In this document: in pieces, positions 17,019-52,222 of the stretch
Numbering within the stretch: the first letter of the stretch is position 1
How the letters are laid out: the number at the start of each line of letters is the position of its first letter
From: a virus
Virus record (IMG/VR): IMGVR_UViG_3300027797_000016
Span: 41,060-105,059 of that record
Length of the DNA stretch: 64,000 nucleotides
Reading direction: 5' to 3' (one strand)
Notes under the pieces: generated by a model
The model's input: only the letters and a program-made list of their open reading frames with translations
Told to the model about the DNA's origin: nothing
Databases searched by the model: none
Program-made: the position numbers and the translations under genes

Positions 17019-17351
17019 TTAACTTAAGACAGATGCATTGACAATAATATTACCTTCTCTTTGTTTCTCTTTGACTGAACTTCCATTCACAGTAAAGACA
17101 TTATAATAATATCTACCACTATCAAGAGAAGCAGTTATAGTACTTGCCATTGAGATTCTAATTGTACTGGTACTTGTTGTAATTCCAGTCGTAAATGGAT
17201 AAGTTGTTGTGTCTCCTGCATACTTTGCAAGAAATGCAGATGCTGTGTATGATGAAATACCAACAAGAGATTGGTCTGGGTTTTTAAGAATAAAATCTCT
17301 TGTAAAATCTTCACCTTGTTGTATTGTGAAGTTCTCTGCGATGACTGACAT
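17019..17351 (-). CDS. Small virion structural protein (BppU-N-like beta sandwich)
   Basis: I.QG.DF...GRYYY.V pattern. Confidence 0.7.
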   Translation of the reverse strand: MSVIAENFTIQQGEDFTRDFILKNPDQSLVGISSYTASAFLAKYAGDTTTYPFTTGITTSTSTIRISMASTITASLDSGRYYYNVFTVNGSSVKEKQREGNIIVNASVLS

Positions 17352-17354
17352 TTT

Positions 17355-18683
17355 TTATCTTGTTAATGCTTGGAGTTGTTGATTGGGAAGTCTTTTTGGG
17401 TAGTATTTTAAGTATTTGCAATGACAATTAATTCTAGAATTGCTGGCTATTTCGGTGAGACCTATAATTAACATACTAACATTAATTTTATCTGGAACTA
17501 CACCTAAATTATCAGTACCCATCAAAATACCATTTCTGGCAGCAGCAAAATTATTCTCTTTAAATGCAAAGGAAACTTTTGATCCTGTTGCTGCCAACCC
17601 AAAATCAATTCCAACTTGATCGTTATATGCACCTCCAGGTCGAACTCCATTTCTTACAAGAAAATATCCCCCACCAAATCTGGTAGTTATAAAATATTGA
17701 ATTGTATAAAATGAATCTCCAACTGCAGTACCTGCAACACCAAATCCTGGATATCCTTCTGGTGCATTGACATTAAACGGGAAATCAGTATGTTCCAATA
17801 AAATAGTTCCTTCAGTTCCATTATACCAACTAAAATTATTTTGTGTTATTATTGCAGTATCTTTATCTCGGGTTCTTGTTGATCCTATTGTGGGTATGTA
17901 GGAGGTTGGGAATGCTCCTGCTTCCAGTTGAGCACCCCAGATGTAGATACCTGATGTTCCGTCTCCAGTATATTGTGTTGTAGAACCATTATATATTATA
18001 ATGGATGGGTTATTGGTTGTATTTACTGTACCCTTTGTTGCAGTTAAAATGCATCTATACCATCCGTTTGGATATGCTATTGTTGTTGCTGATATTGCAG
18101 TATAATCTGCACTTGTAAGACCAGTAGATACAATTGCACCATTAGATAAATTAAAAATTACTTGTGCAGCGGCATTTAAAAAATTAGAAAGAGATAATGA
18201 AACATAACCTCTTTCTGCTGCTTTTGCAAATACACTCAAAGTTACAGTTTCATTACTTGCAGTTCTTCCAACATAAGCAAAATGTTCTACATTAGATGCA
18301 GTATTTTCTACTAATTTCTCTGCACTATTAGTTCCATCAGGTGCAGTCGTTGCTGATGTATTTGTTGTAATACCTATATTTGATTTAGTCCAAGCAGCAT
18401 TATCAAACTGCTCACTATAAGTCAACAAATTAGTCCTACTCTCCTCCACCAACAAACCCAAACTCTCACCAGTCACCGGGTTGTGGTCAAAACGTGCCTC
18501 ATTGACTCCGGATAACTTAATCAACCCATCAGCACCCGTATAAGACCCACCAGATGCTCTTGTGAAGGTGATTCTTGAGTCTAGTGCCTTCACCCGTGCA
18601 AAGTTTAGATCCAGAGTTGGTCTAACCTCTGGATAGTCTAAATCAGTTGTATCAGCAGAAAGCAGAAAGGTATCAATACTCAT
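17355..18683 (-). CDS. Spike/fibre receptor-binding-like protein A
   Basis: ITFTRAS..RFDH.P.TGE.LGLLVEESRTN; PTSYIPT; lectin/LamG-like C-terminus. Confidence 0.8.
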   Translation of the reverse strand: MSIDTFLLSADTTDLDYPEVRPTLDLNFARVKALDSRITFTRASGGSYTGADGLIKLSGVNEARFDHNPVTGESLGLLVEESRTNLLTYSEQFDNAAWTKSNIGITTNTSATTAPDGTNSAEKLVENTASNVEHFAYVGRTASNETVTLSVFAKAAERGYVSLSLSNFLNAAAQVIFNLSNGAIVSTGLTSADYTAISATTIAYPNGWYRCILTATKGTVNTTNNPSIIIYNGSTTQYTGDGTSGIYIWGAQLEAGAFPTSYIPTIGSTRTRDKDTAIITQNNFSWYNGTEGTILLEHTDFPFNVNAPEGYPGFGVAGTAVGDSFYTIQYFITTRFGGGYFLVRNGVRPGGAYNDQVGIDFGLAATGSKVSFAFKENNFAAARNGILMGTDNLGVVPDKINVSMLIIGLTEIASNSRINCHCKYLKYYPKRLPNQQLQALTR

Positions 18684-18689
18684 TGTTTA

Positions 18690-19112
18690 TCAGGTAGTGG
18701 TTATTCCATATCTCCAAGTCCCAGCTGGAGTTCTAATATAAAGTCTGTTATTTGTGGTATCATAAATCAACGGAACAGTTCCAATTGGTACTGCAGGTTC
18801 TGCACCAGTAGGAGGACCTACAGTAGGAGCACCAGCACAAGTTGGAATACATAAGAACCCATTTGTTGCGGTGGTTGCTAATGAACTTCCAGCACCAATG
18901 ACTACATTACCACTATTTGGTTGTAGTGTAAGGTTAGTATAATTATTTGTTGTTCCAGTTGTAGGAAAACCAACAATGGTTGTAGTTGATGCAATACCAA
19001 CGGGTGACTGAATATTTCTTACAGTAATACCAGAAGAGTTCTGGAATGCAAGTTCACCAAGCATTCCATTGGTAGGAATTTGATTAGAATTTGAGCCTAT
19101 AAGACTTGCCAT
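18690..19112 (-). CDS. Short fibre-associated virion protein
   Basis: NQIPTNGMLG N-terminus; IYDTTNNRLYI. Confidence 0.75.
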   Translation of the reverse strand: MASLIGSNSNQIPTNGMLGELAFQNSSGITVRNIQSPVGIASTTTIVGFPTTGTTNNYTNLTLQPNSGNVVIGAGSSLATTATNGFLCIPTCAGAPTVGPPTGAEPAVPIGTVPLIYDTTNNRLYIRTPAGTWRYGITTT

Positions 19113-19136
19113 ATGACTTATACTTTATTTTACTAT

Positions 19137-19487
19137 TTAGAAGAAGGTTCTCTGTGGATTTTGTGGAGTTACTACATAATCTTCTAACTCATTAGGAAGT
19201 GGAATTTCTGGTTTGTTACCATAAACCGTTCTGTAGTTATAATGATATCCTTCTATTTGAGTTGGTGGAGTAATGACTTCTCCAACTTCACTATAAACAC
19301 CATCACCATTAAAAAGAATACCAACCTCATCAATTGCAAAAGTTTCAGTTTGAGTTGTGATTTCTAATGAGTCTAGTGGTTCATTAGTTTCTGGGTTATA
19401 TGAAGTATGAGTGTGCTCTGGGATTGTGGAGAACACTTGGAGTGCTTCTTCTTTGGAAGCGAACTTAAGGAAATAATCTGTTATCAT
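19137..19487 (-). CDS. Probable spike/fibre partner protein
   Basis: YFLKF..E.EA...HYNYR...P..P.R.F. Confidence 0.7.
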   Translation of the reverse strand: MITDYFLKFASKEEALQVFSTIPEHTHTSYNPETNEPLDSLEITTQTETFAIDEVGILFNGDGVYSEVGEVITPPTQIEGYHYNYRTVYGNKPEIPLPNELEDYVVTPQNPQRTFF

Positions 19488-19503
19488 GATGTTTTTGTTT
19501 TAT

Positions 19504-20835
19504 TTATGATGTGAGGGTTTGGAGTTGGGAGTTAGAAAGACGGACTGGGTAGTATGAGAGTCTGGAGATGGTTCCATTTAGGTATCTATTAGTATCACTT
19601 TCACGACCAACAACTAATATATTAAATCCACTTTGACTTATATTACCTGTAGCATCCAAAGAAATATTTCCTCCATTTAAACATTGTGAGAAGTAATTTA
19701 CATCCTCATAATTAAATATCGATTTACCATTTCCTGATGTATAAGTATTTGATATAAATTCAACTGCATATGTAAAATCTGTTAAAAATGCAAAACTTCG
19801 CATGGTTGATATATACACTCCGGATTCTTGCCCTCCTATTCTTGAGGACATTCTACGACTAATATTAGAACTATCAAATATACTAACTAAATACATATCT
19901 AAAATACTACTTGGGTGAATTTTGTTATTAAAATTCACTAAGAAACTCCCCTCATCCTGTCTATACCAACTACTAAAGTTCTTACCAGTTATTGATGCAT
20001 TATCTGCTGCTCGGGTTCTTGTTGATCCTACTGTGGGTATGTAGGAGGTTGGGAAGGATGCTTGTTCTATTTGGGCGCCCCAGACGTAGATGCCACTGGT
20101 GCCGTCTCCTGTGTAAACAGTATTTATACTCGTTGTATTTAAAGTTACATTAAAATTAACTGCAGTTCCACTACCTGCGGTTGAAGGAATTCCCGTTAAA
20201 ATACATCTATACCACCCGTTTGGATATTGTTGAATATTTGTTGTAATTACCGATCCATTTCCTTCTGCTAAAGTACTAACTACACTTCCAGTATCACTAT
20301 CAAACCAAGCAGATGCTCTATTTCCTGCTGCACCTGCTGCAATTATTTGAAATCTTATTCTATATCTTTCTGCAGATTTTATGAAAATAGAAGCAGTATA
20401 TGTTGCAGATGTTGATCCGGATACATCTAAATTTATAAAATGATCTGTGCTTGGACTTGTATCTTCATATAGTTTTTCGCAATCATTAGTTCCATTTGGA
20501 GATAAAGTTGCTGCAACATTTGCTGATACAGAAGTCCGGACTTTACTCCAAGCAGCATTATCAAACTGCTCACTATAAGTCAACAAATTAGTCCTACTCT
20601 CCTCCACCAACAAACCCAAACTCTCACCAGTCACCGGGTTGTGGTCAAAACGTGCTTCATTTACTCCAGATAACTTAATCAACCCATCAGCACCCACATA
20701 AGACCCACCACTAGATCTTGTAAAGGTAATACGGGGGTCTAGTGTTTTACTATTTGCAAAATCAAGGTCAAGTGTAGGTAGCACAATAGGGTAATCAAGT
20801 TCTGCACTGGTATTAAAAACTTGTTTGACTGACAT
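19504..20835 (-). CDS. Spike/fibre receptor-binding-like protein B
   Basis: Paralog of A and C. Confidence 0.8.
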   Translation of the reverse strand: MSVKQVFNTSAELDYPIVLPTLDLDFANSKTLDPRITFTRSSGGSYVGADGLIKLSGVNEARFDHNPVTGESLGLLVEESRTNLLTYSEQFDNAAWSKVRTSVSANVAATLSPNGTNDCEKLYEDTSPSTDHFINLDVSGSTSATYTASIFIKSAERYRIRFQIIAAGAAGNRASAWFDSDTGSVVSTLAEGNGSVITTNIQQYPNGWYRCILTGIPSTAGSGTAVNFNVTLNTTSINTVYTGDGTSGIYVWGAQIEQASFPTSYIPTVGSTRTRAADNASITGKNFSSWYRQDEGSFLVNFNNKIHPSSILDMYLVSIFDSSNISRRMSSRIGGQESGVYISTMRSFAFLTDFTYAVEFISNTYTSGNGKSIFNYEDVNYFSQCLNGGNISLDATGNISQSGFNILVVGRESDTNRYLNGTISRLSYYPVRLSNSQLQTLTS

Positions 20836-20854
20836 ATTATTAGTTTATTTTTAT

Positions 20855-22456
20855 TTAGACTGTGATTCCACTTCTTATAACCTTTAATGTATTATTACGA
20901 TATGTAGGTGAGAATAATAACCGTGCATTTGCTCCGCTAATATCAGCACCAAAAGAACCTAAAACCTCACTATTTGCAAGACTTGCATATTCTATATAAT
21001 CACAAGCAGTCGCAGCAGAACCAACACTTTGTAAAATCATAATATCAGTACTTTGATAGTTTCTCACTACACTTGTGGCAGGAAAACTAAATCCAGACCC
21101 TAATGCACCCAATGTTGCACTTAATGTATTTCCAGTCACATAACCACTTCCGGGAGATACAATCACAACAGATGCAACTCCACCAGATTTAGTCATTGTA
21201 TTACCAACACCAGCAAAGGTAGTTGTTCCAATACCAGTGACTTGAGACCCTGCCTGATTATAAAAGAGTCTTAATGCAGTAGTACCAACACCAACTGCAA
21301 AGTAAATATTACCCGCAGTCACTGCAAACCCAGTAAATCCAGAGTTTGGAATACTAGATGCAAATGAGACTGCAATTGATGATGCAGTTCCTAGTCCGTG
21401 AACTGCAGTAGTTACAATTAAATTAGATGCACTTGTAAATCCAACTGCATTAAAGGAAAGTCCAATACCAATATTTGCTCTTGCATCATTACCACTACCA
21501 CCAGTAATAGCAACATTCGTATAAGATGCTTCTGTAAATCCAGCACCAGCAGTGATTGTACCAACTGATGTAAGATTCGTAGACATTCCTGATGTAATCA
21601 GTTGTCCGGTGCAAGCAATCGAGACTTGATATCTTGCAGTCTGGAATGTTGCAGTAGGAAGACTATCTAATACTTGATTCGCAGTGGTTGCAGTAGTGGT
21701 AAGAATACCAGAGGTTTGAGAACCTATGACTCCAGTATTAAATGTTGCTGATGTAGTAACTCCAGAAACATTTAGATTAGTTGCAGATGCACTTCCTAAT
21801 ATTGGTGTGACTAATGTAGGACTAGTAGCAAATACAGCAGCACCAGTACCAGTCTCATCAGTAAGTGCTGCTGCTAGATTAGAACTTGATGGTGTTGCAA
21901 GGAAAGTAGCAACGTTAGCAGCAAGACCAGAAATACCTGTAGAAACCGGTAGTCCAGTACAATTTGTAAGAGTACCAGATTGTGGAGTTCCTAATATTGG
22001 TGTGACTAATGTAGGACTAGTAGCAAATACAGCAGCACCAGAACCAACATTATCAGTAAGTGCTGTTAAGAGTTGTAGTGATGTAAAAGACCCCAATGAT
22101 GTTGCGGTATTAACTGATGTGATTGCACCAGTGAGATTAGGTATATTAGTTGTTGAGGTTGCAGTTCCACTGACTGCACCACTAAATGATGTTGCAGTAA
22201 TGATACCTGCAGTTACATTTGCAAGTGTTGTGATACCAGTTACATTTAAGTCAGTAAAGGTATTGGGTGCATTTGCGATTGCAGTTTCGATTGTTGCAGT
22301 TGTGGTTGCATCTAATGAAGCAATGTTTCTTAACTGTCTTCCTGCACTGATGACTTCTGTGTTACCAATACTTACTGATGTGACTGATGTGATACCAGCA
22401 TTTACAATATTTCTACTATCATCGATGATAGTAGAGTTTGAAATTTTAATTGCCAC
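20855..22456 (-). CDS. Tail-fibre-like virion protein
   Basis: AVFATSPTLVTPILG repeats; C-terminal domain shared with 25603..29862. Confidence 0.8.
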   Translation of the reverse strand: MAIKISNSTIIDDSRNIVNAGITSVTSVSIGNTEVISAGRQLRNIASLDATTTATIETAIANAPNTFTDLNVTGITTLANVTAGIITATSFSGAVSGTATSTTNIPNLTGAITSVNTATSLGSFTSLQLLTALTDNVGSGAAVFATSPTLVTPILGTPQSGTLTNCTGLPVSTGISGLAANVATFLATPSSSNLAAALTDETGTGAAVFATSPTLVTPILGSASATNLNVSGVTTSATFNTGVIGSQTSGILTTTATTANQVLDSLPTATFQTARYQVSIACTGQLITSGMSTNLTSVGTITAGAGFTEASYTNVAITGGSGNDARANIGIGLSFNAVGFTSASNLIVTTAVHGLGTASSIAVSFASSIPNSGFTGFAVTAGNIYFAVGVGTTALRLFYNQAGSQVTGIGTTTFAGVGNTMTKSGGVASVVIVSPGSGYVTGNTLSATLGALGSGFSFPATSVVRNYQSTDIMILQSVGSAATACDYIEYASLANSEVLGSFGADISGANARLLFSPTYRNNTLKVIRSGITV

Positions 22457-22483
22457 CGTCTTCGTTTACACTAGGGGTTATTG

Positions 22484-23752
22484 TTATTTAGTTAATGCTT
22501 GGAGTTGAGCGTTGGTAAGTCTTTTTTGGTAGTATGAGAGTCTGGAGATGGTGTACTGTCCAATTGTAGTTCTTTGATCAGTATTTTTTCCAAATTCTAA
22601 TTGATTAAATCCTGGAGAAGTTGCGTATATATTACCACTTCCTGTTCCTATTGTCCCATTTAATGCAGAAATAATTGGAGATGAATTTATATTGTAAGAT
22701 TGAATTACTTTTTGAAAATTATTATTTGTTAAAGAAAATTGTGGATATAAATTTGTTCCTCCAACATTATATTGAGTATGAATACTGTTTGATATAGTTA
22801 GTAATCTAAAGTAATTATTAATCGTTCCAAATGTGGTTGCTGGGTAATTATTAATACTCCATATATTATTAGTAATATTTAATTCAGTTTTAAATTGTGC
22901 AAAAAATGTCCCCTCATCCTGCCGATACCACTCTCTAAAGTTCTTACCAGTTATTGATGCATTATCTGCTGCTCGGGTTCTTGTTGATCCTACTGTGGGT
23001 ATGTAGGAGGTTGCGAATTCTCCGGATTCGACTTGTATTCCCCAAAAATAATTGTCTGCAGACCCGCCCTCAAGGTCAACACGAGCATCAGGTCCAAAAA
23101 CTCCACCATTATAATCAGGTCTTGCAACTAAAGTACAACTAAATCTATACCAATCATTTTGATATCTTTCAGTTCTTATATTTTGAAATTGTCCGCTATT
23201 AGGATTATTTCCATCAAATCTAAAATTATATGTTCCCAACGACCCGCCACCAACTGACTGTTGAAATATTTCTATATTACTAAAGTCTCTATTCAGTCCA
23301 CCAAATCTTCTTTTAGAAAAAAAACTGAGTGCTAGTGTAGAAAGTCCATTAGCATTAAAAACACTTGACGTTAATTCACTTACAGTAATATAATAAACAG
23401 TTCCTAAAACTCCATAAGGATTTAATATTGTATCAGTATTTACTTGTGTATTTAAATTCCCACTCCAACCTGACACAAAGTCTTCACTATAAGTAATCAA
23501 ATTAGTCCTACTCTCCTCCACCAGTAACCCCAAAGATTCACCAGTATAAGGATCGTGGTCGAATCGTGCCTCATTGACTCCGGCAAATTTAATATAACCA
23601 TCAGCACCCACATAAGACCCACCAGATGCTCTAGTGAAGGTTATTCTTGGGTCTAGTGTTTTACTATTTGCAAAATCTAGGTCAAGTGTAGGTCTTACAC
23701 TTGGGAAATTATTAACTGATGACTTATTGGAACCAACTCTAAAAACAGACAT
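22484..23752 (-). CDS. Spike/fibre receptor-binding-like protein C
   Basis: Paralog of A and B. Confidence 0.8.
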   Translation of the reverse strand: MSVFRVGSNKSSVNNFPSVRPTLDLDFANSKTLDPRITFTRASGGSYVGADGYIKFAGVNEARFDHDPYTGESLGLLVEESRTNLITYSEDFVSGWSGNLNTQVNTDTILNPYGVLGTVYYITVSELTSSVFNANGLSTLALSFFSKRRFGGLNRDFSNIEIFQQSVGGGSLGTYNFRFDGNNPNSGQFQNIRTERYQNDWYRFSCTLVARPDYNGGVFGPDARVDLEGGSADNYFWGIQVESGEFATSYIPTVGSTRTRAADNASITGKNFREWYRQDEGTFFAQFKTELNITNNIWSINNYPATTFGTINNYFRLLTISNSIHTQYNVGGTNLYPQFSLTNNNFQKVIQSYNINSSPIISALNGTIGTGSGNIYATSPGFNQLEFGKNTDQRTTIGQYTISRLSYYQKRLTNAQLQALTK

Positions 23753-25563
23753 TACTTAATATTCTCCTTCAGGTTATTTATCTCTTTCTGTTGCTTCTTC
23801 ACGACCTCAATCAGTAATCCAATCAAACCATTATAATTCACAGTCTTACTATCAGTACCATTTACAAGTTCTGGAAGAACTTTCTCCACTTCTTGAGCAA
23901 TCACACCCATAGAACTTCTACCACTTTCTTTCCAATCAAAGGATACTCCATTAATCTGTAGAACCTTATCTATTGGATTTATAATTGGTTTAATGTTCTC
24001 TTTGAGGTTAATGTCCGATGCAGAGTTAAAATCAGTAGATGTGGTAACACCAGAGACTAATACATCTCCAATGACGTGAAGTTTACTTGTTGGATTTGTG
24101 GTTCCAATACCAAGATTACCAGAGACATAAGCACCACCAGTGACCTGAAGTCTTTGTAATGATGTTCCTGTTGATGTTGCAGCACCAATAAAGACGGGTC
24201 CATTTACAAAGGTAGAAATTCCTGTAATTTGTAAGTCAGTAAATGTATTGGGTGCATTTGAGATTGCACTCTCAATTGTTGCAGTCGTAACACTATCAAG
24301 AGAAGCAATATTTTGTAACTGTCTTCCTGAACTAATGACTTGAGTAGATGCAATATTTAAAGAACCAACTGTACCAATACCACTATAAGAAACATTGGTT
24401 CCTGATAGGTTAGTAATAGTTCCATTAGTACTGTTAAAGGTTGTAATAGTCCCTGCAGTACCAGTTAAATTGGTAATAGTTCCATTAGTACTGTTAAAGG
24501 TTGTAATAGTCCCTGCAGTACCAGTTAGATTGGTAATAGTTCCTGTGGTACTGTTAAGAGTTGTAATCGTACCAATACCAGTAATCCTTCCATTTCTTGC
24601 TGTAAACTCATCAAATACTAAATCATCAGCAACATATAAGTCTCCACCAACATATAAATCTCCACCAGTAGTTGTAATACCACCAGAACTTGCAAGTGTA
24701 CTAATACCAGCAACAGTAATACTACCAAATAAAGTAGTTGGTCCACTTATGTTTGATGGACCAGGAAAGACTGTAAGTGCATCAACAACAGCAGTAGTTA
24801 CAACATCAATACCTTGTAAGAAAGTAGAAACTCCAGATACTCTTAATGAACCAGTACTTGTAAGACCAGATACTACTAGTGAATTTGTTGTTGTAACTCC
24901 AGAAACTACTAATGAACCAGTTGTTGTAACTCCAGTATTATTGATTGTAGTACTTCTTACATTAGTGATTGTAGAAATACCAGTATAGTTTAGATTAGTT
25001 CCAGAGATATTAGTTACAGAACCATTTGTATAAGTTAATGTAGTTCCACTGATTGTTGTTACAGTACTAACACCTAAAGAGTTTATATTTCCTGTTAGAT
25101 TACCAACAAAACCACCAGAAGAAGTAGTAACTCCAGAAACTAATACATTTCCACGAACATCAAGAGTTACTAAAGGATTTGTGGTTCCAATACCAACAAG
25201 ACCAGTATTTGTAGTAGAAACAATCGTTCCACCAGTTCCTACATTTAAAATTCTAACAGTTGCAATACCAGTTATATTTCCGTTTCTTGCTGTAAACTCA
25301 TCAAATACTAAATCATCAGCAACATATAAGTCTCCACCAACATATAAATCACTTACAGTAGTTGTGACCCCAGTAAATGTAGATACACCAGTTACAATTA
25401 ATGTTTGTAGTTTTGTATTTCCAACTACCTCAAACTTTGTACTTGGATTTGCAGTACCAATACCAATATTTGGTAGTGCTGTGGTTGCAATACCAACATT
25501 TTTATTGGCGTCATTAACTCTAACAAATGAAGCAAATTGTGAAAGTTCTCTATTATTAGCCAT
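23752..25563 (-). CDS. Tail fibre with C-terminal intramolecular chaperone (peptidase S74)
   Basis: GIGTTNP repeats; SDINLKENI...GVIAQEVEKVLPELV...VNY. Confidence 0.85.
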   Translation of the reverse strand: MANNRELSQFASFVRVNDANKNVGIATTALPNIGIGTANPSTKFEVVGNTKLQTLIVTGVSTFTGVTTTVSDLYVGGDLYVADDLVFDEFTARNGNITGIATVRILNVGTGGTIVSTTNTGLVGIGTTNPLVTLDVRGNVLVSGVTTSSGGFVGNLTGNINSLGVSTVTTISGTTLTYTNGSVTNISGTNLNYTGISTITNVRSTTINNTGVTTTGSLVVSGVTTTNSLVVSGLTSTGSLRVSGVSTFLQGIDVVTTAVVDALTVFPGPSNISGPTTLFGSITVAGISTLASSGGITTTGGDLYVGGDLYVADDLVFDEFTARNGRITGIGTITTLNSTTGTITNLTGTAGTITTFNSTNGTITNLTGTAGTITTFNSTNGTITNLSGTNVSYSGIGTVGSLNIASTQVISSGRQLQNIASLDSVTTATIESAISNAPNTFTDLQITGISTFVNGPVFIGAATSTGTSLQRLQVTGGAYVSGNLGIGTTNPTSKLHVIGDVLVSGVTTSTDFNSASDINLKENIKPIINPIDKVLQINGVSFDWKESGRSSMGVIAQEVEKVLPELVNGTDSKTVNYNGLIGLLIEVVKKQQKEINNLKENIK

Positions 25564-42710: not shown

Positions 42711-43502
42711 TTATTTATCGTCCTTATTTCTTGGTCTTCTTGTTGCTTTCCATCCTTTATAATTATCTTGCTTTCCATTTACGACTTCATATACAAACTT
42801 AGAAAATAAATTATTTTCTTTGCAAAATTTTAAAGCATTAATAGTTTTAAATATTTCACCATCAGGAGAAATAAAAGTATAAACATACTTACATTTTGAA
42901 TCACTTAACTTTTCTTTAGTTTCAATAGTGTGATTTTTATTATAAAAAGGATTTTTTTCTCCCGTTATATCTCTTCCACCATTTTCCCAAAATTTTTTAT
43001 GCGACACACTTATTTTATTTTTATGCTCCTCTTCTTTTTTAATTCCTTTCATTTTTTTGGAAAATTTTTCAATATGTTCTTTTGATTTTGGTGGTTTTGA
43101 TTTACCCTTTAAAGATTTTGATATATTTTCTCTTCTTTCTATACTAAATTTAATTCCTGTTTTTAATTCACTCATTCTTTTTTTACAATTTTCATATAAA
43201 ACTGAGGTATATCTTACTTGAGTTTTATTTTTTGCACTCATACTACAGAATGCCTGATTCATTTTAATAGTTTTATAATGCTTTAATCCATACCTTTTGA
43301 TACAAATCTTTTCCAATAATGCGTGAGCAATATAATGTTCTCTTGCGGCCAAATAGACAATTCTTTTATTATTTCCATATATGCTTTTAGGAAATGTATG
43401 ATGTCCCTCAACATACACTCCTTTCTCCTTTGCTTTCTTTTTAGTGTAATTTCTTTGTTCTGCTTTTCTTATGAGGTTACAATAAACCTTTAGATAATTC
43501 AT
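42711..43502 (-). CDS. Free-standing HNH (Mob-like) homing endonuclease with NUMOD domains
   Basis: EGHHTFPKS...NKRIVYLAAREHYIAHALL; GEKNPFY. Confidence 0.85.
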   Translation of the reverse strand: MNYLKVYCNLIRKAEQRNYTKKKAKEKGVYVEGHHTFPKSIYGNNKRIVYLAAREHYIAHALLEKICIKRYGLKHYKTIKMNQAFCSMSAKNKTQVRYTSVLYENCKKRMSELKTGIKFSIERRENISKSLKGKSKPPKSKEHIEKFSKKMKGIKKEEEHKNKISVSHKKFWENGGRDITGEKNPFYNKNHTIETKEKLSDSKCKYVYTFISPDGEIFKTINALKFCKENNLFSKFVYEVVNGKQDNYKGWKATRRPRNKDDK

Positions 43503-43529
43503 ACTGCTCTTAAAACTGACTAGCAATAT

Positions 43530-43537
43530 TATTTATA
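43530..43537 (-). promoter_or_regulatory. T4-type late promoter TATAAATA for the HNH gene
   Basis: Exact consensus. Confidence 0.8.
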
Positions 43538-43539
43538 CT

Positions 43540-43566
43540 AAAAAGGAGGAGATTTTAGTCTCCTCC
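43540..43566 (-). terminator. Intrinsic terminator
   Basis: GGAGGAGA-CTAAAA-TCTCCTCC-TTTTT. Confidence 0.85.
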
Positions 43567-43596
43567 AACCTCAAAGATGCTAGTCAGTTAAGGCAT
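43540..43596 (-). ncRNA. Putative antisense small RNA 2 (to the HNH mRNA leader)
   Basis: ATAAATA at 43600-43606; complementary to leader 43505-43525; homologous to sRNA 1. Confidence 0.55.
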
Positions 43597-43598
43597 TT

Positions 43599-44231
43599 TT
43601 ATTTATTACTCTTCCACTTATGATCTTTCCATTTTAGTCTTTTTTCTAATTCTTTATCAAAGATTAGCATATATCTATGTTTCCTGGTTCTCTCTCTCCA
43701 CTCGCCTTTAAGACTCCTTGTAGGACCTCTTGAGTGCTTTATATAGGATCCATCAGGTTGTTCAATCCAGAAGTCACTCTTAGGATCGGTCGTCCCAAAA
43801 TACCGGAAATTAGTTGCACGATAAATGACTCCTGTATGGTGATTAGCATCAGCATAGCTAAGAATACAACGAACATTTGCATCTTTACGAAACCTCTTGA
43901 TACAACGACTTACGAACCAGGATGTGATATTATATTCTTCTTTTTGGACATCTGGATGAACACAAAGTCTTGAGAGTTCATAGAGACCTTCCTGTTCATT
44001 TCTTTGTAGTCCAAATGCACCTACGGCAAGCTCTGGAACTGGGAAAGAAGTAAAAACGCAAGCAGCAATAGGGCTGCCAATTCTAAGGACATCTGTGAAA
44101 GATTTTCTATAGAGTGCATAGTTATAGTGACTTTTAAAAGTTTTACTCTCATCCTTAAGATAATGATATGTTAAAAGGAGTGGTTCAAGTTCTTTTTTTG
44201 TCACTCTTTCTATATAGAAGTCACTTTTCAT
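43599..44231 (-). CDS. Mom-like (GNAT-fold) DNA-modification protein
   Basis: HYL...ELSRL...SYAD...H.G.IY.ATNF.Y.G motifs of the Mu Mom family. Confidence 0.75.
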   Translation of the reverse strand: MKSDFYIERVTKKELEPLLLTYHYLKDESKTFKSHYNYALYRKSFTDVLRIGSPIAACVFTSFPVPELAVGAFGLQRNEQEGLYELSRLCVHPDVQKEEYNITSWFVSRCIKRFRKDANVRCILSYADANHHTGVIYRATNFRYFGTTDPKSDFWIEQPDGSYIKHSRGPTRSLKGEWRERTRKHRYMLIFDKELEKRLKWKDHKWKSNK

Positions 44232-44249
44232 AATAATAAGTATTTGTAA

Positions 44250-44783
44250 TTATTTACTAACACGATTATATGATTTTCCATAAAATGGATTATTTTCTCC
44301 AGTAATATCTCTTCCACAATCTTTCCAATATTTTTTGGCAGCTTTTCTCATTTTATTTTTAGTTTCCTCACTATGCGGTTTTCTTTTTCTATTCTTAGAA
44401 GAAAGTTTCATTTTTTCTATTGTTTCTGGTGAATGTTTTTTACCATAAAATGGATTTTTACTGCCAGGTTTTGAAATTTTTTTCTTAGTATCTTCATTAT
44501 GCGAATATCCAGATATTCCATCACCACCGTTAGTCATATTACGAAGAATACCAGTTCTCAAATCTTTTCTACCAAAAATAGAAATCATATAAACTTCGTG
44601 TTTATTTGCCTCTTCTTCTGTAATATTTTTCTTTAAGAAGATAATTTTATTATTGTCTTTTGGTTTTAAGTTTGTTTTATTTTGTCTAATATGACTTTTA
44701 TAAACTCTCCTTCCTCTACCTTTACCAATATAATAGGGAGTTCCGTCTTTACGCAAATATGCGTAAGTGTAATATTCGTTCAT
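44250..44783 (-). CDS. Free-standing GIY-YIG-type homing endonuclease with NUMOD3 repeats
   Basis: YYTYAYLRKDGTPYYIGKG; paralog of 3994..4665; late promoter at about 44807-44814. Confidence 0.85.
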   Translation of the reverse strand: MNEYYTYAYLRKDGTPYYIGKGRGRRVYKSHIRQNKTNLKPKDNNKIIFLKKNITEEEANKHEVYMISIFGRKDLRTGILRNMTNGGDGISGYSHNEDTKKKISKPGSKNPFYGKKHSPETIEKMKLSSKNRKRKPHSEETKNKMRKAAKKYWKDCGRDITGENNPFYGKSYNRVSK

Positions 44784-44883
44784 TGTGTCTTGGTGTTGAC
44801 TATTAATATTTATAACATAAAAGTGGGACTTATACAACTATATCCACCAAGACACAAGTTGCTGCCCATTTTACTTAATTATG

Positions 44884-45042
44884 TTATGATTTGCTGATAA
44901 GGTACTCAACAGTATTTGCTACATCATTCATAGCATCACGAAGATTTTCTCTTTGACCTGATTCCATATCAAAAGTAACGGGATCTGTAAGAGTCCATCT
45001 CCACTGATTCATATCTTTATTGAACCATAGGTTAATTATCAT
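44884..45042 (-). CDS. Hypothetical protein, 52 aa (MIINLWFNKDMNQWRWTL...)
   Basis: Translated by hand. Confidence 0.75.
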   Translation of the reverse strand: MIINLWFNKDMNQWRWTLTDPVTFDMESGQRENLRDAMNDVANTVEYLISKS

Positions 45043-45194
45043 TATGATTTTTTATATTTTTCTAATTTGATCCAATTTAGGAGTGCATTTAGTTCTCCTC
45101 GTTTTGATTCAGTCATATCTTGACCTTTACTGAAGAGATAGAAATCAATTGCTTCAATAGTGAGATTACGATCTTTTTGTGAAATTAGAGACAT
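45042..45194 (-). CDS. Hypothetical protein, 50 aa (MSLISQKDR...)
   Basis: Translated by hand. Confidence 0.7.
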   Translation of the reverse strand: MSLISQKDRNLTIEAIDFYLFSKGQDMTESKRGELNALLNWIKLEKYKKS

Positions 45195-45216
45195 ATTAAA
45201 GTTTTTAAGAAACTTA

Positions 45217-45288
45217 AGCCCCCGATCTGATTTGAACAGACGGCCGACGGTTTACAAAACCGTTGCTCTACCACTGAGCTACAAGGGC
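45217..45288 (-). tRNA. trnT: tRNA-Thr(UGU), no encoded CCA
   Basis: GCCCTTGTAGCTCAGTGGTAGAGCA-ACGGT-TTTGTAA-ACCGT...GTTCAAATC...GGGGGCT cloverleaf. Confidence 0.95.
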
Positions 45289-45297
45289 AACAAAAGA

Positions 45298-45326
45298 ATT
45301 ATAGATTATTTAGAGCATTTTGTCAA
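45298..45326 (-). promoter_or_regulatory. Sigma70 promoter for tRNA-Thr
   Basis: Perfect TTGACA-17-TATAAT. Confidence 0.9.
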
Positions 45327-45588
45327 GGACTTCAGGATTCTCAAGATCCATTTCGAATAAACAAGGATGTGCCTCCTCATCAATTAAGTAGAATGATTTT
45401 TGATAGAAAAATTCTGGATCATATGTTAGATGCTCATTTGCTTTTTGGATGATCTCTGGATCATCTTGCATAATAATTGGTATTTCATCAAAAGTAAATG
45501 CAATACCATTAATATAATAAGTTAGAATAATAAACTTATCGTCTTCTGTCTCATACCAATTATAAGAAGTTGTGATCTTATATTTCAT
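45310..45588 (-). CDS. Hypothetical acidic protein
   Basis: ORF track; late promoter at about 45600. Confidence 0.8.
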   Translation of the reverse strand: MKYKITTSYNWYETEDDKFIILTYYINGIAFTFDEIPIIMQDDPEIIQKANEHLTYDPEFFYQKSFYLIDEEAHPCLFEMDLENPEVLDKML

Positions 45589-45599
45589 TGGTTTTTTTA

Positions 45600-46328
45600 T
45601 TATTTATTGATCCATTTGCGAATAGAATTATCACTAACACCATATTTTTTACCTACAGCAAGATAAGAACTTTCTTTTACTTCTTGTAATAATTGTTCTT
45701 TAGAAGGTCTTTCAACTTTTCTTTGAGATTTTGAATAACAACTATTACAAAGACCCGTTTTGCAGTTTGTTTTTAATTCAACCTCACACGAAGAACATTT
45801 ATGAATTTTTTTGGTTCGTATTATTTGAATTTTATTTTTTATTGTTTGTGAGTTTTTATTTTTCTTATTTTTACCACGATATGTTGGTGTTTTAGCGTGG
45901 CAGTTGGGACATAATATTTTTAGATTTTCTAACATATTGTTATAATGGTCTCCATCAATATGATCTAATTCTAAAGGTATTGGTTCTCCTAACCATTCAC
46001 TCAACTCACAACATTCGCATCTATGATTCTTTAATCCCTCTATAATTAATCTTTTTCGCAATTTGTTAGAATTGTACTCATAATTCTTAACAAGTATTTC
46101 GCTTAATGGAGTTGTATTAAACTTGTGAGTTTTCCCCTTTAGATGTCCTTGACCTGTAAAATGTGAAGTGTCTATTCCATAAAGTTTTTCAAATTTTTTA
46201 AATACTCTATAGTTTCCACCTCTTGGAGATAATCCAAGTTTTGTAAGTGCTTGTGCTATAGAAAAACTTTCTTCTACTGCTTTTTTAAAGTCTTCTATAG
46301 AATATGAATGTTTCATACTGATAAACAT
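45600..46328 (-). CDS. Free-standing HNH endonuclease with zinc ribbons (start at 46328 or 46316)
   Basis: CECC...LELDHIDGD..NN..ENLKILCPNCH; C-terminal HTH. Confidence 0.9.
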   Translation of the reverse strand: MFISMKHSYSIEDFKKAVEESFSIAQALTKLGLSPRGGNYRVFKKFEKLYGIDTSHFTGQGHLKGKTHKFNTTPLSEILVKNYEYNSNKLRKRLIIEGLKNHRCECCELSEWLGEPIPLELDHIDGDHYNNMLENLKILCPNCHAKTPTYRGKNKKNKNSQTIKNKIQIIRTKKIHKCSSCEVELKTNCKTGLCNSCYSKSQRKVERPSKEQLLQEVKESSYLAVGKKYGVSDNSIRKWINK

Positions 46329-49483: not shown

Positions 49484-52222
49484 TTAAGGTGTGAACATTT
49501 CGATTGTTGGATATTCTGTAAATCCAAATCCAGGATCAATAACAGCAACTTTAATCACTCTTCCAAAAGATCCAAAAACTGGTTCAAGAACAGCACCATT
49601 ACTTGGAGTAATTCTAATTTTATCAGTAACATTATAATTGATTCCTGGATTTGTCACAATAACACTTTTTAATCTTAAAGCTACTGGATAAGTTGGATCT
49701 TTAACTGGTTCTTGAACAAAAGGAACTGAAGGTGGGAAATAATCTCCAGCACCAATAATACTACGACTACTTAACGTTGACCGAACTGTTCCTGGAATAT
49801 TTAGTAGAGGGTCATTACTTGTTATATCAGTACCTTGTCTTAAGATAGCAGATGGTAGAGTAGTAACTTGCGCAATAATACTTTCTCTTAAAGTATCATA
49901 TACTTGAATTGGTTCTCCTACAGTTTCATAATAACCAGCATAACGAATACCATTATCATAATAAACAGCACCATAATAAGCCCTTCCATTTACATATCCA
50001 GTTTGTTTTAATCCAACAAGATCAGTGACTTGTAAAAGTTTTGATCCATCTATTACAATTGGATCTCTTACAACTTCAAATTGTGGTATAAATGTTGCAT
50101 TAATTCCTGTTGGTGTAGGAGTTCCTGGTGGAGTTCCTGGTGGAGTTCCTGGTGGGGTTCCTGGTGGAGTTCCCGGTGGAGTTCCCGGTGGGGTTCCCGG
50201 TGGAGTTCCCGGTGGAGTTCCCGGTGGAGTTCCCGGTGGAGTTCCTGGTGGAGTTCCTGGTGGAGTTCCTGGTGGGGTTCCCGGTGGGGTTCCTGGTGGG
50301 GTTCCCGGTGGAGTTCCCGGTGGAGTTCCCGGTGGAGTTCCTGGTGGAGTTCCTGGTGGAGTTCCTGGTGGGGTTCCTGGTGGAGTTCCCGGTGGAGTTC
50401 CTGGTGGAGTTCCTGGTGGAGTTCCCGGTGGAGTTCCCGGTGGGGTTCCTGGTGGAGTTCCTGGTGGAGTTCCTGGTGGGGTTCCCGGTGGGGTTCCCGG
50501 TGGGGTTCCTGGTGGGGTTCCCGGTGGAGTTCCCGGTGGAGTTCCTGGTGGAGTTCCTGGTGGAGTTCCTGGTGGAGTTCCTGGTGGAGTTCCTGGTGGG
50601 GTTCCCGGTGGGGTTCCTGGTGGAGTTCCTGGTGGAGTTCCTGGTGGAGTTCCTGGTGGAGTTCCTGGTGGAGTTCCTGGTGGAGTTCCTGGTGGAGTTG
50701 GTGTAGGAGTACCAGGAGTTGGAGGTGTTGGAGGTGTTGGTGTAGGAGTACCAGGAGTTGGAGGTGTTGGAGGTGTTGGAGTTGGAGTTAGTGAAGTTGG
50801 TGTAGGATAACCCAGACCAGGATCTATTACTTCTATTTGCGTTACAAGTCCTCGTATTTCTTTTTCTGGTCTTGGTGGAATTGGTAGTTTTGGTGTATCT
50901 ATATCCACAGAGAACGCAAGGATTCTCATATCATTAAAATCATTTCTAGTTATGTTTGCATCAGCAAATATAACATTAGATTTTTCGCCGGGAGTTTGCT
51001 TTAACTTATTAGGACCATCTTCATGTAACTTTGTGAAGTCATGTTTTCCTTTTTCTAGGGTTCCTACTTGGATTCCACCCCCTCCACTGCCACGTGGCCG
51101 GCCGACTCTGTTTCCATCAATATCTCTATCCACAAAGGCTCCCCCTTCCCCCTTTACTGTGCCACCATCTGATGATGCTACTACTCTATAGTCAACATTT
51201 GGTTTTACCATTCTACGCTCAACCATACTTCTCCTTAGACCACCAGGTCCGCCCTTACGATCTTCTCTTATGCTAAATTCATGTCGTGGGCCGGGGTTTT
51301 TTCTAGGATTCTGCTCTGTAAATGTAAATCTATAACCCGTTCCAATATCTCCTGCACCTGTTACCCTCCAAGTTACCTCTAAAAGATCTCCGGGTTTATA
51401 ACCTTTTATTCTTGCAAGAGTCTCTGGAGAAACTTTTAGTCTATATGTGAGACTATATGTTGTTCTGCCTCCGAATGGTGTTGGACGAGGACTTGAAGGT
51501 GTAAATACGCCTGCCTCAAACGGACCTTGACGACCTGTACCTTGACCAAGACCTTTACCAGGACCTGAAGATGCCTTACCATCAAATAGTACGGATGGTA
51601 ATGTGGACGCACTGAAGTAAGATTTTGGATCCCAAGGGCCCATATCTTCTCCATCTAGACCCCAATTTCTCCCATAACCAACTTCATTTTCGGGGCAAAG
51701 TTTTTCTGGCGGCGCATCTCGTTTTTCTTTTTCTTGCTTAACAGGAGGATCGTCAAGAATAGCTCTGAGTACAGCACCACTTCCAATTGATGCATTATCT
51801 CTTGCAGAAACGAGTGGTGGATACTGATATCCATTGCCACGACGAACAATATCTACAGCCATAATAGCACCATCTGTACCTATGACTGCATTAGCCGCAG
51901 CACCAATTCCACCTCCACCAAAAATTTGAATGGTTGGAGGTTTACATAGTGTATTTGAACTAGTAATTCCTACGCATGGGTCACCTTTTTTTGTTAACTC
52001 TTTTGTTCCTGACTTTTCAATTAAGTCTCTAACCTGCTTAATATTCAAATATTTAAGTACTTGCTTTCCACTTCTAAAGATAAAAATAGTTCCTGGGTTT
52101 TTCTTGTCATATTCTTTTGCCTCACAGAATGTTACATTCCTAACCAATCCCAAAATAGGATCAATATAAGCAAATCTAAAATCATCTTCTATTGCTTCAC
52201 CAAATAAAATTAATTTTGACAT
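49484..52222 (-). CDS. Baseplate-associated structural protein with Pro-Pro-Gly-Thr repeat linker
   Basis: [10 protein letters not shown]...G.GY modules; PPGT x48. Confidence 0.8.
50121..50696. repeat. 48 tandem 12-bp units gttccYggtggR
   Basis: Counted directly. Confidence 0.95.

Follow-up and report, generated by a model that had tools for sequence, protein, structure and literature searches.

Three paralogous fibre genes with a common block layout

The window analysed here comprises 64,000 nt (positions 41,060 to 105,059) of IMGVR_UViG_3300027797_000016, a 105-kb virus record of IMG/VR with an estimated completeness of ~42%. It contains three paralogous open reading frames (ORFs), termed A, B and C, all of which lie on the minus strand in direct orientation (coordinates in Table 1). 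Alignment of the three proteins with one another, and a further alignment of 180 relatives, revealed the same layout: after the N-terminus (N), three constant blocks (C1, C2 and C3) enclose two variable segments (V1 and V2). An earlier note on this DNA had described three paralogs with three conserved blocks around two divergent segments, and both alignments bear this out. We consider it likely that A, B and C are accessory fibres whose V1 and V2 segments are swapped by ordinary recombination in the shared blocks.

All three proteins matched the NCBIfam model NF048003 (GTA_spike_fiber) above its curated cut-off of 36 bits (scores in Table 1), with matches spanning positions 1-181 or 1-182 of the 182-position model. 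Furthermore, A, B and C matched phrog_5939, annotated 'tail protein', with E values of 3.7e-99, 4.7e-97 and 9e-82, respectively (profile positions ~345-761 of 801). No Pfam match was found in A, B or C; among 57 relatives, PF13385 (Laminin_G_3) was detected in three and PF02018 in two (E<=0.01). The best sequence match to a solved entry was Rcc01080 (PDB 6TB9), the head-spike fibre of RcGTA, the gene transfer agent of Rhodobacter capsulatus, with E 3e-58 using the family profile and E 5e-40 using B alone (B residues 18-313). The spike/receptor-binding identity proposed in the earlier note is upheld by the NF048003 and Rcc01080 matches. We conclude that A, B and C are paralogous accessory fibres, and probably receptor-binding proteins that bind glycans.

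AlphaFold (AF2) models were obtained for B (m818e2ac3c3de; predicted local distance difference test (pLDDT) 70.7) and C (md91833b64826; pLDDT 74.5), each consisting of two beta-sandwiches. The inner sandwich of B (residues ~77-267) superposed on Pa193 gp46 (VIA Z 20.9, root-mean-square deviation (rmsd) 2.2 over 174 residues) and also on a domain of the E217 gp45 baseplate protein. The C-terminal sandwich (~275-443) superposed on the CBM40 domain 6ER3 (VIA Z 18.0, rmsd 2.6, 157 residues) and, by model comparison, also resembled pentraxins and LamG domains. In the C model, single CBM40 domains aligned over residues 19..422 (~164 residues), among them 4YZ5 (Z 15.2, rmsd 2.6, 164 residues). These fold matches agree with the two lectin-like domains that had been proposed from the sequence; the likeness to concanavalin-A-like lectins, LamG and CBM40 is one of fold level only.

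Because single CBM40 domains align over C residues 19..422, the models suggest that the domain order is probably nested rather than simple tandem, with the C1a strands forming part of the C-terminal sandwich and the GTA_spike_fiber domain inserted into it. On either topology, the constant blocks are predicted to supply the strands that open and close each sandwich, together with the linker, and V1 and V2 to form the sandwich cores and loops, which differ beyond alignment. The homology arms envisaged in the earlier note do flank the cores of the domains, but they are not separate elements: the arms are the terminal strands of the domains themselves.

Rcc01080 (GhsB) is a flexible RcGTA head fibre with affinity for capsular polysaccharide on recipient cells, and in its structure only the N-terminal residues 2-10 are resolved (PMC7296036, PMC10218006). 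It is homologous to the paralogs over C1-V1-C2 (B residues 18-313 against chain residues 26-308). However, Rcc01080 is a 325-aa protein without V2 and C3, it is encoded by a single gene of a gene transfer agent, and cassette exchange has not been described for it. Furthermore, Rcc01080 docks on a pentameric base via an N-terminal Ile/Leu-Gly repeat, whereas the N-termini of A (MSIDTFLL), B (MSVKQVFN) and C (MSVFRVGS) contain no such repeat. Since the three genes sit in a tail-fibre cluster, attachment to the tail appears at least as likely as a head-spike position.

Among the matches to the inner domain, Pa193 gp46 (PDB 9B45) and E217 gp45 (PDB 8ENV) rank first by structure and second by sequence, at 29% identity and E ~5e-25 with the family profile. 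In these phages the domain belongs to an integral baseplate protein of ~500 aa, without a second variable domain or known exchange. The fold of the outer domain is that of the sialic-acid-binding CBM40 modules (NanC, NanJ and the R. gnavus IT-sialidase) and also of pentraxins and LamG, with Z 14-18 over 155-165 residues. It is a classic glycan-binding scaffold, although sequence identity is only 10-18%.

The blocks also differ in base composition. GC content was 0.26-0.35 in the variable segments, 0.40-0.48 in C1 and C2, and 0.33-0.48 in C3. The description of the variable segments as AT-rich therefore holds in comparison with C1 and C2, but not with every block, since the C3 of A falls inside the variable-segment range and is no richer in GC than the V parts. 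At third codon positions, GC was 0.29-0.44 in the C1 blocks and 0.08-0.15 in V1 and V2, against 0.15 for the genome; the C1 values lie in the top 1-5% of the genome's 80-codon windows, and that of A lies above every one of them. Across the family, third-position GC was higher in the blocks than in V1 in 148 of 156 genes (median excess 0.20), whatever the GC content of the genome. Relative to neighbouring genes, V1 was AT-shifted in 52 of 60 cases, while the blocks equalled or exceeded their neighbours. Candidate explanations for this contrast are biased heteroduplex repair, codon selection at conserved sites and fast cassette turnover. Import of GC-rich arms from GC-richer phages was rejected, as it leaves unexplained the GC-rich genomes, in which the arms match their neighbours and V1 is strongly AT-shifted. 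Additionally, coding-strand third-position G+T was 0.60-0.75 in C1, 0.30-0.39 in C2 and 0.13-0.14 in C3 (B, and the same blocks in A and C); family-wide the contrast is weaker (0.63 in C1 and 0.42 in C2).

Identity tracts and independent assortment of the variable segments

The conserved blocks of A, B and C share nucleotide identity in a patchwork. Two tracts reported in the earlier note, one of 109 nt between A and B and one of 79 nt between B and C, were confirmed as exact and maximal. Their significance was assessed by placing the mismatches at random within the conserved blocks: neither run was reached in any of 20,000 permutations (P<5e-5 each). Two shorter tracts from the same note, of 25 nt (B and C) and 17 nt (A and C), were likewise exact and maximal. 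Runs of such length are, however, reached by chance (P ~0.1 for 25 nt, P=0.28 for 21 nt and more often still for 17 nt), and thus they are not evidence by themselves. According to the models, the 109-nt tract (in the C1b part of C1) would encode the opening strands of the inner domain and the 79-nt tract (in C2b) the strands with which the chain re-enters the outer domain.

Codon usage at identical residues revealed an abrupt breakpoint within a single block. Between A and B, 7 of 22 such codons were identical in C1a as opposed to 49 of 52 in C1b (Fisher 5e-8), the codon identity expected at saturation, calculated from the codon usage of the genome, being 0.50. Thus, A and B are old paralogs carrying a recent conversion tract that starts near codon 46. 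Between B and C, 20 of 22 codons were identical in C2b, and in C2a ~87% were identical in all three pairs. Synonymous identity is therefore elevated in parts of the blocks; the earlier note had named the absence of such an elevation as grounds for refutation.

Public metagenomes contain both the unchanged proteins and apparent recombinants. The exact protein was found on 26 contigs for A (the longest of 234,560 bp), 26 for C and 21 for B. The 90% cluster of B contains three variants: P0295, a form of B in which positions 44 and 50 carry the residues of A; P0292, which comprises residues 1-99 of A followed by the rest of B (2 contigs, the longest of 26 kb, from JGI and ENA); and P0001, a chimera of the P0292 type with 3 private substitutions. 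The crossover of P0292 and P0001 lies inside the 109-nt tract shared by A and B. Taken with the B of the window, these variants show A-derived tracts whose ends are nested. P0295 is not explicable by an assembly jump, because A and B have no long identical run at its switch.

Further combinations involve B and C. P0002 follows B through C2 and then C, whereas P0003 follows C through C2 and then B; both are 100% parental on either side of the 79-nt tract and each was found on one ENA contig. Either unequal crossing-over gave rise to them, as its duplication and deletion products, or they are errors of assembly. P0006, which joins a C-type V1 to a B-type V2 and a C-type C3, is ~10% diverged, and this combination is therefore present in a separate lineage.

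Assortment of the two variable segments was measured on a family set of members of 375-460 aa among the matches to A, B and C, in 180 of which identity was determined segment by segment. Selection by hits is biased towards proteins with any part in common with the queries, and proteins sharing both V1 and V2 would rank highest; only one such protein was found for B and one for C. V1 and V2 identities were uncorrelated (Spearman 0.05), in contrast to C1 and C2 (0.53). At 50% identity the 180 proteins fell into 106 V1 and 102 V2 clusters, so that more than 100 types of each occur in the sample and assort almost freely: all 29 multi-member V1 clusters paired with more than one V2 type, as did 36 of 38 V2 clusters. 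Among 97 pairs sharing V1 at >=85% identity, only 21 also shared V2, and about 78% thus carried unrelated V2 segments. Identity switched at B residues 235-299, within C2. In other lineages, variable segments of the A, B and C types are found again, joined to unrelated partners. Incongruent V1 and V2 histories with breakpoints in the constant blocks, which the earlier note had proposed to look for, are thus observed.

For the V2 core of B (the V2 segment in Table 1), a search of 1.84 billion cluster representatives yielded 3 hits at E<=1e-3; one of them is a fragment of B and another a 36%-identical family member. No outside donor of this cassette could be named from that search, and by sequence comparison individual V2 types appear to be extremely rare in public data.

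The same pattern was found in finished genomes of cultured Kyanoviridae. S-CAM4 (gp071/gp072), ACG-2014j and S-WAM2 each carry two tandem members of the family at the end of the fibre cluster, 33-37% identical to A over 96% of A, with the same place and the same arrangement of blocks and cassettes. These genomes differ from the window in having two adjacent copies rather than three interspersed with fibre genes, and their copies are annotated only as hypothetical or tail protein. Comparison of the ACG-2014j isolates US103 and US23 at the DNA level showed 97.8% identity in the downstream flank and, over N and C1, 96% in paralog 2 and 81% in paralog 1. V1 and V2 gave no DNA match between the isolates and the protein lengths differ.

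Longer relatives of 600-750 aa (P0009-P0012, P0022 and P0074) repeat the C1-V1-C2 unit one to two times before a full C1-V1-C2-V2-C3, and this accounts for the split C1 matches seen at many loci. Insertion of an extra domain into C1 was ruled out for these proteins, as BLAST shows the repeated unit. Adjacent tandem arrays of 2-3 members with a spacing of ~1.2-1.3 kb are common in metagenome contigs (loci L097, L085, L088, L092, L116 and L118).

Probable cassette exchange and its alternatives

Synonymous breakpoints, nested variants, reassortment of V1 and V2 and the comparison of isolates all support recombination through the conserved blocks, as the earlier note had put forward. Its view of cassette exchange is sustained as to recombination but requires qualification, as most exchange across the family takes place between genomes and the paralogs of other genomes are not homogenised. 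In the scheme that we favour, each protein would consist of a short private N-terminus, an inner jelly-roll and a CBM40/LamG-like outer jelly-roll. The inner jelly-roll would be the GTA_spike_fiber domain (C1b, V1 and C2a), and the outer would comprise C2b, V2 and C3, probably with the C1a strands, which would make the inner domain an insertion. Conservation of the opening strands, the closing strands and the linker is seen in the proteins and, in part, in the DNA. With these arms common to all alleles, a crossover in C1, C2 or C3 by ordinary homologous recombination could replace V1 or V2 alone. Relatives that co-infect the cell could act as partners and, in this lineage, so could the three paralogs through ectopic gene conversion; V1 and V2 types would thereby be combined into a repertoire of binding specificities. 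Exchange of cassettes may in this way alter host range. T4-type phages recombine very actively and, by analogy with what is established for T4-like phages, their homologous recombination should suffice as the mechanism.

Precedents for this working logic exist. In gp37 and gp38 of T-even phages, the structural core is built from conserved motifs, between which lie specificity segments that can be exchanged independently (PMC3157838). The A/B/C family shares with them the motif-mediated exchange of cassettes between conserved blocks: flanking blocks, independent histories of the V segments and breakpoints in the blocks, by which motif exchange is recognised, were all found. Tetart et al. are said to have reported in 1998 (J Mol Biol) that recombination between such motifs swaps adhesin specificity. 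The T-even hypervariable segments, located between glycine-rich motifs or His boxes, are nevertheless short loops, whereas the cassettes of A, B and C are whole domain cores of ~120-145 aa. Furthermore, gp37 and gp38 have an unrelated fold, show no relation in PHROG matches and are encoded by one gene per phage as opposed to three paralogs. Recombination hotspots at fibre genes have also been described in large T4-like phages of vibrios (PMC12028318).

The mechanism is thus already known as T-even-type, motif-mediated swapping, and the A/B/C family is a further case. No description of cassette exchange in a family of the GTA_spike_fiber/phrog_5939 type was found in the literature. Distinctive features are the lectin-type sandwiches homologous to the head fibre of a gene transfer agent, the two large cassettes that assort independently and the three full-length paralogs that have traded tracts. 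The family is large, with more than 7,900 relatives in one length-limited search, and has no Pfam model. Marine cyanophages help control Prochlorococcus and Synechococcus populations, and host recognition is the least understood step for them. The family offers a concrete handle on the diversification of host range and defines segments to exchange between cultured isolates. For metagenome analysis, such genes are not single evolutionary units, and assemblies may break or mis-join in the arms.

Several observations weigh against the reading given above. As to structure, B residues 1-76 and the linker were poorly modelled (pLDDT <50); the nested topology derives mainly from the C model, in which C1a has a pLDDT of 58-78; and Rcc01080, which has C1a without an outer domain, fits that topology poorly. 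P0002 and P0003 are single-contig variants that switch exactly at the 79-nt repeat and could therefore be assembly errors, and the incompleteness of the record leaves room for a diversifying enzyme elsewhere in the genome. Finally, in other genomes the median nucleotide identity of C2 was 0.69 within loci and 0.68 between loci (n=15), with a median longest exact C2 run of 13 nt between paralogs of one locus. Concerted evolution of paralogs as a general trait of the family was ruled out by this comparison. Since the paralogs of other loci are not homogenised, the tracts in A, B and C represent recent events specific to this lineage rather than a general feature of the family.

A less likely, though real, possibility is that only exchange between genomes matters, the tracts between A and B and between B and C being rare ectopic accidents without any within-genome library. 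The absence of extra identity between paralogs within other loci is in keeping with this, as are the recurrence of the A/B/C variable types with unrelated partners in other lineages and the ACG-2014j isolates, which differ by whole cassettes that have no donor in the genome. It sits less easily with the two highly significant tracts that tie all three paralogs together in one genome, with the homogenisation of C2a among A, B and C, and with B variants that carry A-derived tracts of three different lengths.

Conversely, the three paralogs might constitute a self-contained cassette library, in which frequent ectopic conversion, by way of arms rich in third-position GC that are kept similar in DNA, yields new combinations of V1, V2 and N-terminus in a clonal phage population without co-infection. 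We regard this as unlikely. Were it true, the locus would be a phage counterpart of pilE/pilS-type variation, and the third-position GC excess of the arms would be the footprint of selection for recombination or of biased repair during it. In Neisseria pilE/pilS and Borrelia vlsE, paralogous copies donate variable segments via conserved flanks. Those systems, however, have one expression site, many silent donors and dedicated control, whereas A, B and C are all full-length genes.

It is improbable that the mosaics, and part of the V1 x V2 reassortment, arose as assembler jumps at shared repeats. P0002 and P0003, fully parental beside the 79-nt repeat and each from a single ENA contig, are in keeping with such jumps. 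The unchanged A, B and C on 21-26 contigs (the longest of 234 kb) argue otherwise, as does P0295, which switches where A and B lack a long identical run, and both P0001 and P0006 carry private substitutions. Moreover, the exact C2 runs of diverged alleles are only ~12 nt, too short for k-mer chimeras, and finished isolate genomes show the same cassette replacement.

An account without recombination, in which the blocks reflect structural constraint and diversifying selection drove V1 and V2 apart in situ, is very improbable. It would accommodate the blocks as core strands of two sandwiches, their family-wide conservation in protein and the C1a of A and B, which stands at or below synonymous saturation (7 of 22 codons). 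It does not accommodate the abrupt jump in synonymous identity inside one block (P 5e-8), the exact runs (P<5e-5) or the lack of correlation between V1 and V2 similarity, with ~78% of close V1 pairs carrying an unrelated V2.

The earlier note had reported no invertase or reverse transcriptase, and this held for the whole 105-kb record: the RVT_1, Resolvase and Phage_integrase models, to which control genomes responded, gave no match in it (~42% of the genome), extending the observation to integrases. No template-repeat/variable-repeat pair was found within 16.5-24.5 kb, and the V segments, instead of showing differences at adenine-templated positions, cannot be aligned. A dedicated diversifier, whether a diversity-generating retroelement or an invertase/shufflon, is accordingly the least probable explanation of all: although the record covers only part of the genome, the three paralogs are in direct orientation, and neither the enzymes in the record nor the repeat pair at the locus was detected.

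Neighbouring genes and genome context

Among cultured phages, Synechococcus myoviruses of the Kyanoviridae come closest (~43% identity for a tail protein), and the record is therefore assigned to a divergent T4-like cyanomyovirus related to this family, with a genome of roughly 235-250 kb. Megablast of the locus against a phage collection gave no match, and scans of viral and metagenome contigs for the locus returned only relatives at <=47% identity.

Table 1. Positions of the paralogs, their blocks, shared tracts and other genes of the window.
Feature	Position	Strand	Remarks
Paralog A	17355..18683	-	442 aa; stop 17355-17357; NF048003 164.6 bits, residues 78-273
A, N	18642-18683	-
A, C1	18390-18641	-
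A, V1	17967-18389	-
A, C2	17799-17966	-
A, V2	17424-17798	-
A, C3	17358-17423	-
Paralog B	19504..20835	-	443 aa; NF048003 156.8 bits, residues 76-277
B, N	20800-20835	-	residues 1-12/15
B, C1	20548-20799	-	residues to 96
B, V1	20110-20547	-	residues 97-240/242
B, C2	19939-20109	-	residues to 297/299
B, V2	19573-19938	-	residues to 421
B, C3	19507-19572	-	residues 422-443
Paralog C	22484..23752	-	422 aa; NF048003 91 bits, residues 77-262
C, N	23714-23752	-
C, C1	23465-23713	-
C, V1	23069-23464	-
C, C2	22901-23068	-
C, V2	22556-22900	-
C, C3	22487-22555	-
109-nt tract, A and B	18389-18497 / 20547-20655	-	exact, not extendable; in C1b
79-nt tract, B and C	19973-20051 / 22935-23013	-	exact; in C2b
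25-nt tract, B and C	19548-19572 / 22528-22552		exact; chance level
17-nt tract, A and C	17362-17378 / 22491-22507		exact; chance level
603-aa tail-fibre protein	23752..25563	-	directly upstream of C; C-terminal intramolecular chaperone domain
533-aa fibre-like ORF	20855..22456	-	between C and B
Two small ORFs together	18690..19487	-	between B and A
116-aa ORF	19137-19487	-
140-aa ORF	18690-19112	-
110-aa ORF	17019..17351	-	just downstream of A
Homing-endonuclease/HNH-type and Mom-like genes	42711-46328
912-aa virion or baseplate protein	49484-52222

In the order of transcription, the locus encodes the 603-aa fibre, C, the 533-aa ORF, B, the 116-aa and 140-aa ORFs, A and the 110-aa ORF. No T4-type late promoter (TATAAATA) was found directly upstream of A, B or C. 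The 603-aa fibre matched Pfam Peptidase_S74 (E 1.1e-16) and many PHROG tail-fibre and baseplate families. No match to the 533-aa ORF was obtained in Pfam, PHROG, NCBIfam or PDB sequences. This ORF shares with the 603-aa fibre a 65-aa stretch at 65% identity (71% in DNA, repeat D3), and it contains internal repeats, including an 83-nt repeat at 92% identity (D7 among the repeats). Hence, the fibre genes beside A, B and C are mosaic too. The 533-aa ORF would disappear in a deletion recombinant between C and B.

The 110-aa ORF matched phrog_3304 (E 2e-15), annotated 'L-shaped tail fiber protein assembly', and phrog_1084 (E 1.9e-15); on these matches it is a possible tail-fibre assembly protein. 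The sole match of the 116-aa ORF was to phrog_18574, of unknown function (E 6e-10), and neither this ORF nor the 140-aa ORF matched NCBIfam. Upstream of this locus, baseplate-hub and tail genes accompany those of giant fibre proteins (1419, 1539, 653 and 1930 aa). A run of homing-endonuclease/HNH-type genes (271, 195 and 242 aa) with a Mom-like gene (210 aa) adjoins the 1930-aa fibre gene on its downstream side. Elsewhere in the window, the 912-aa virion or baseplate protein contains ~60 tandem Gly-Thr-Pro-Pro repeats, which account for a GC spike of 0.53 and a strong skew at 50-51 kb.

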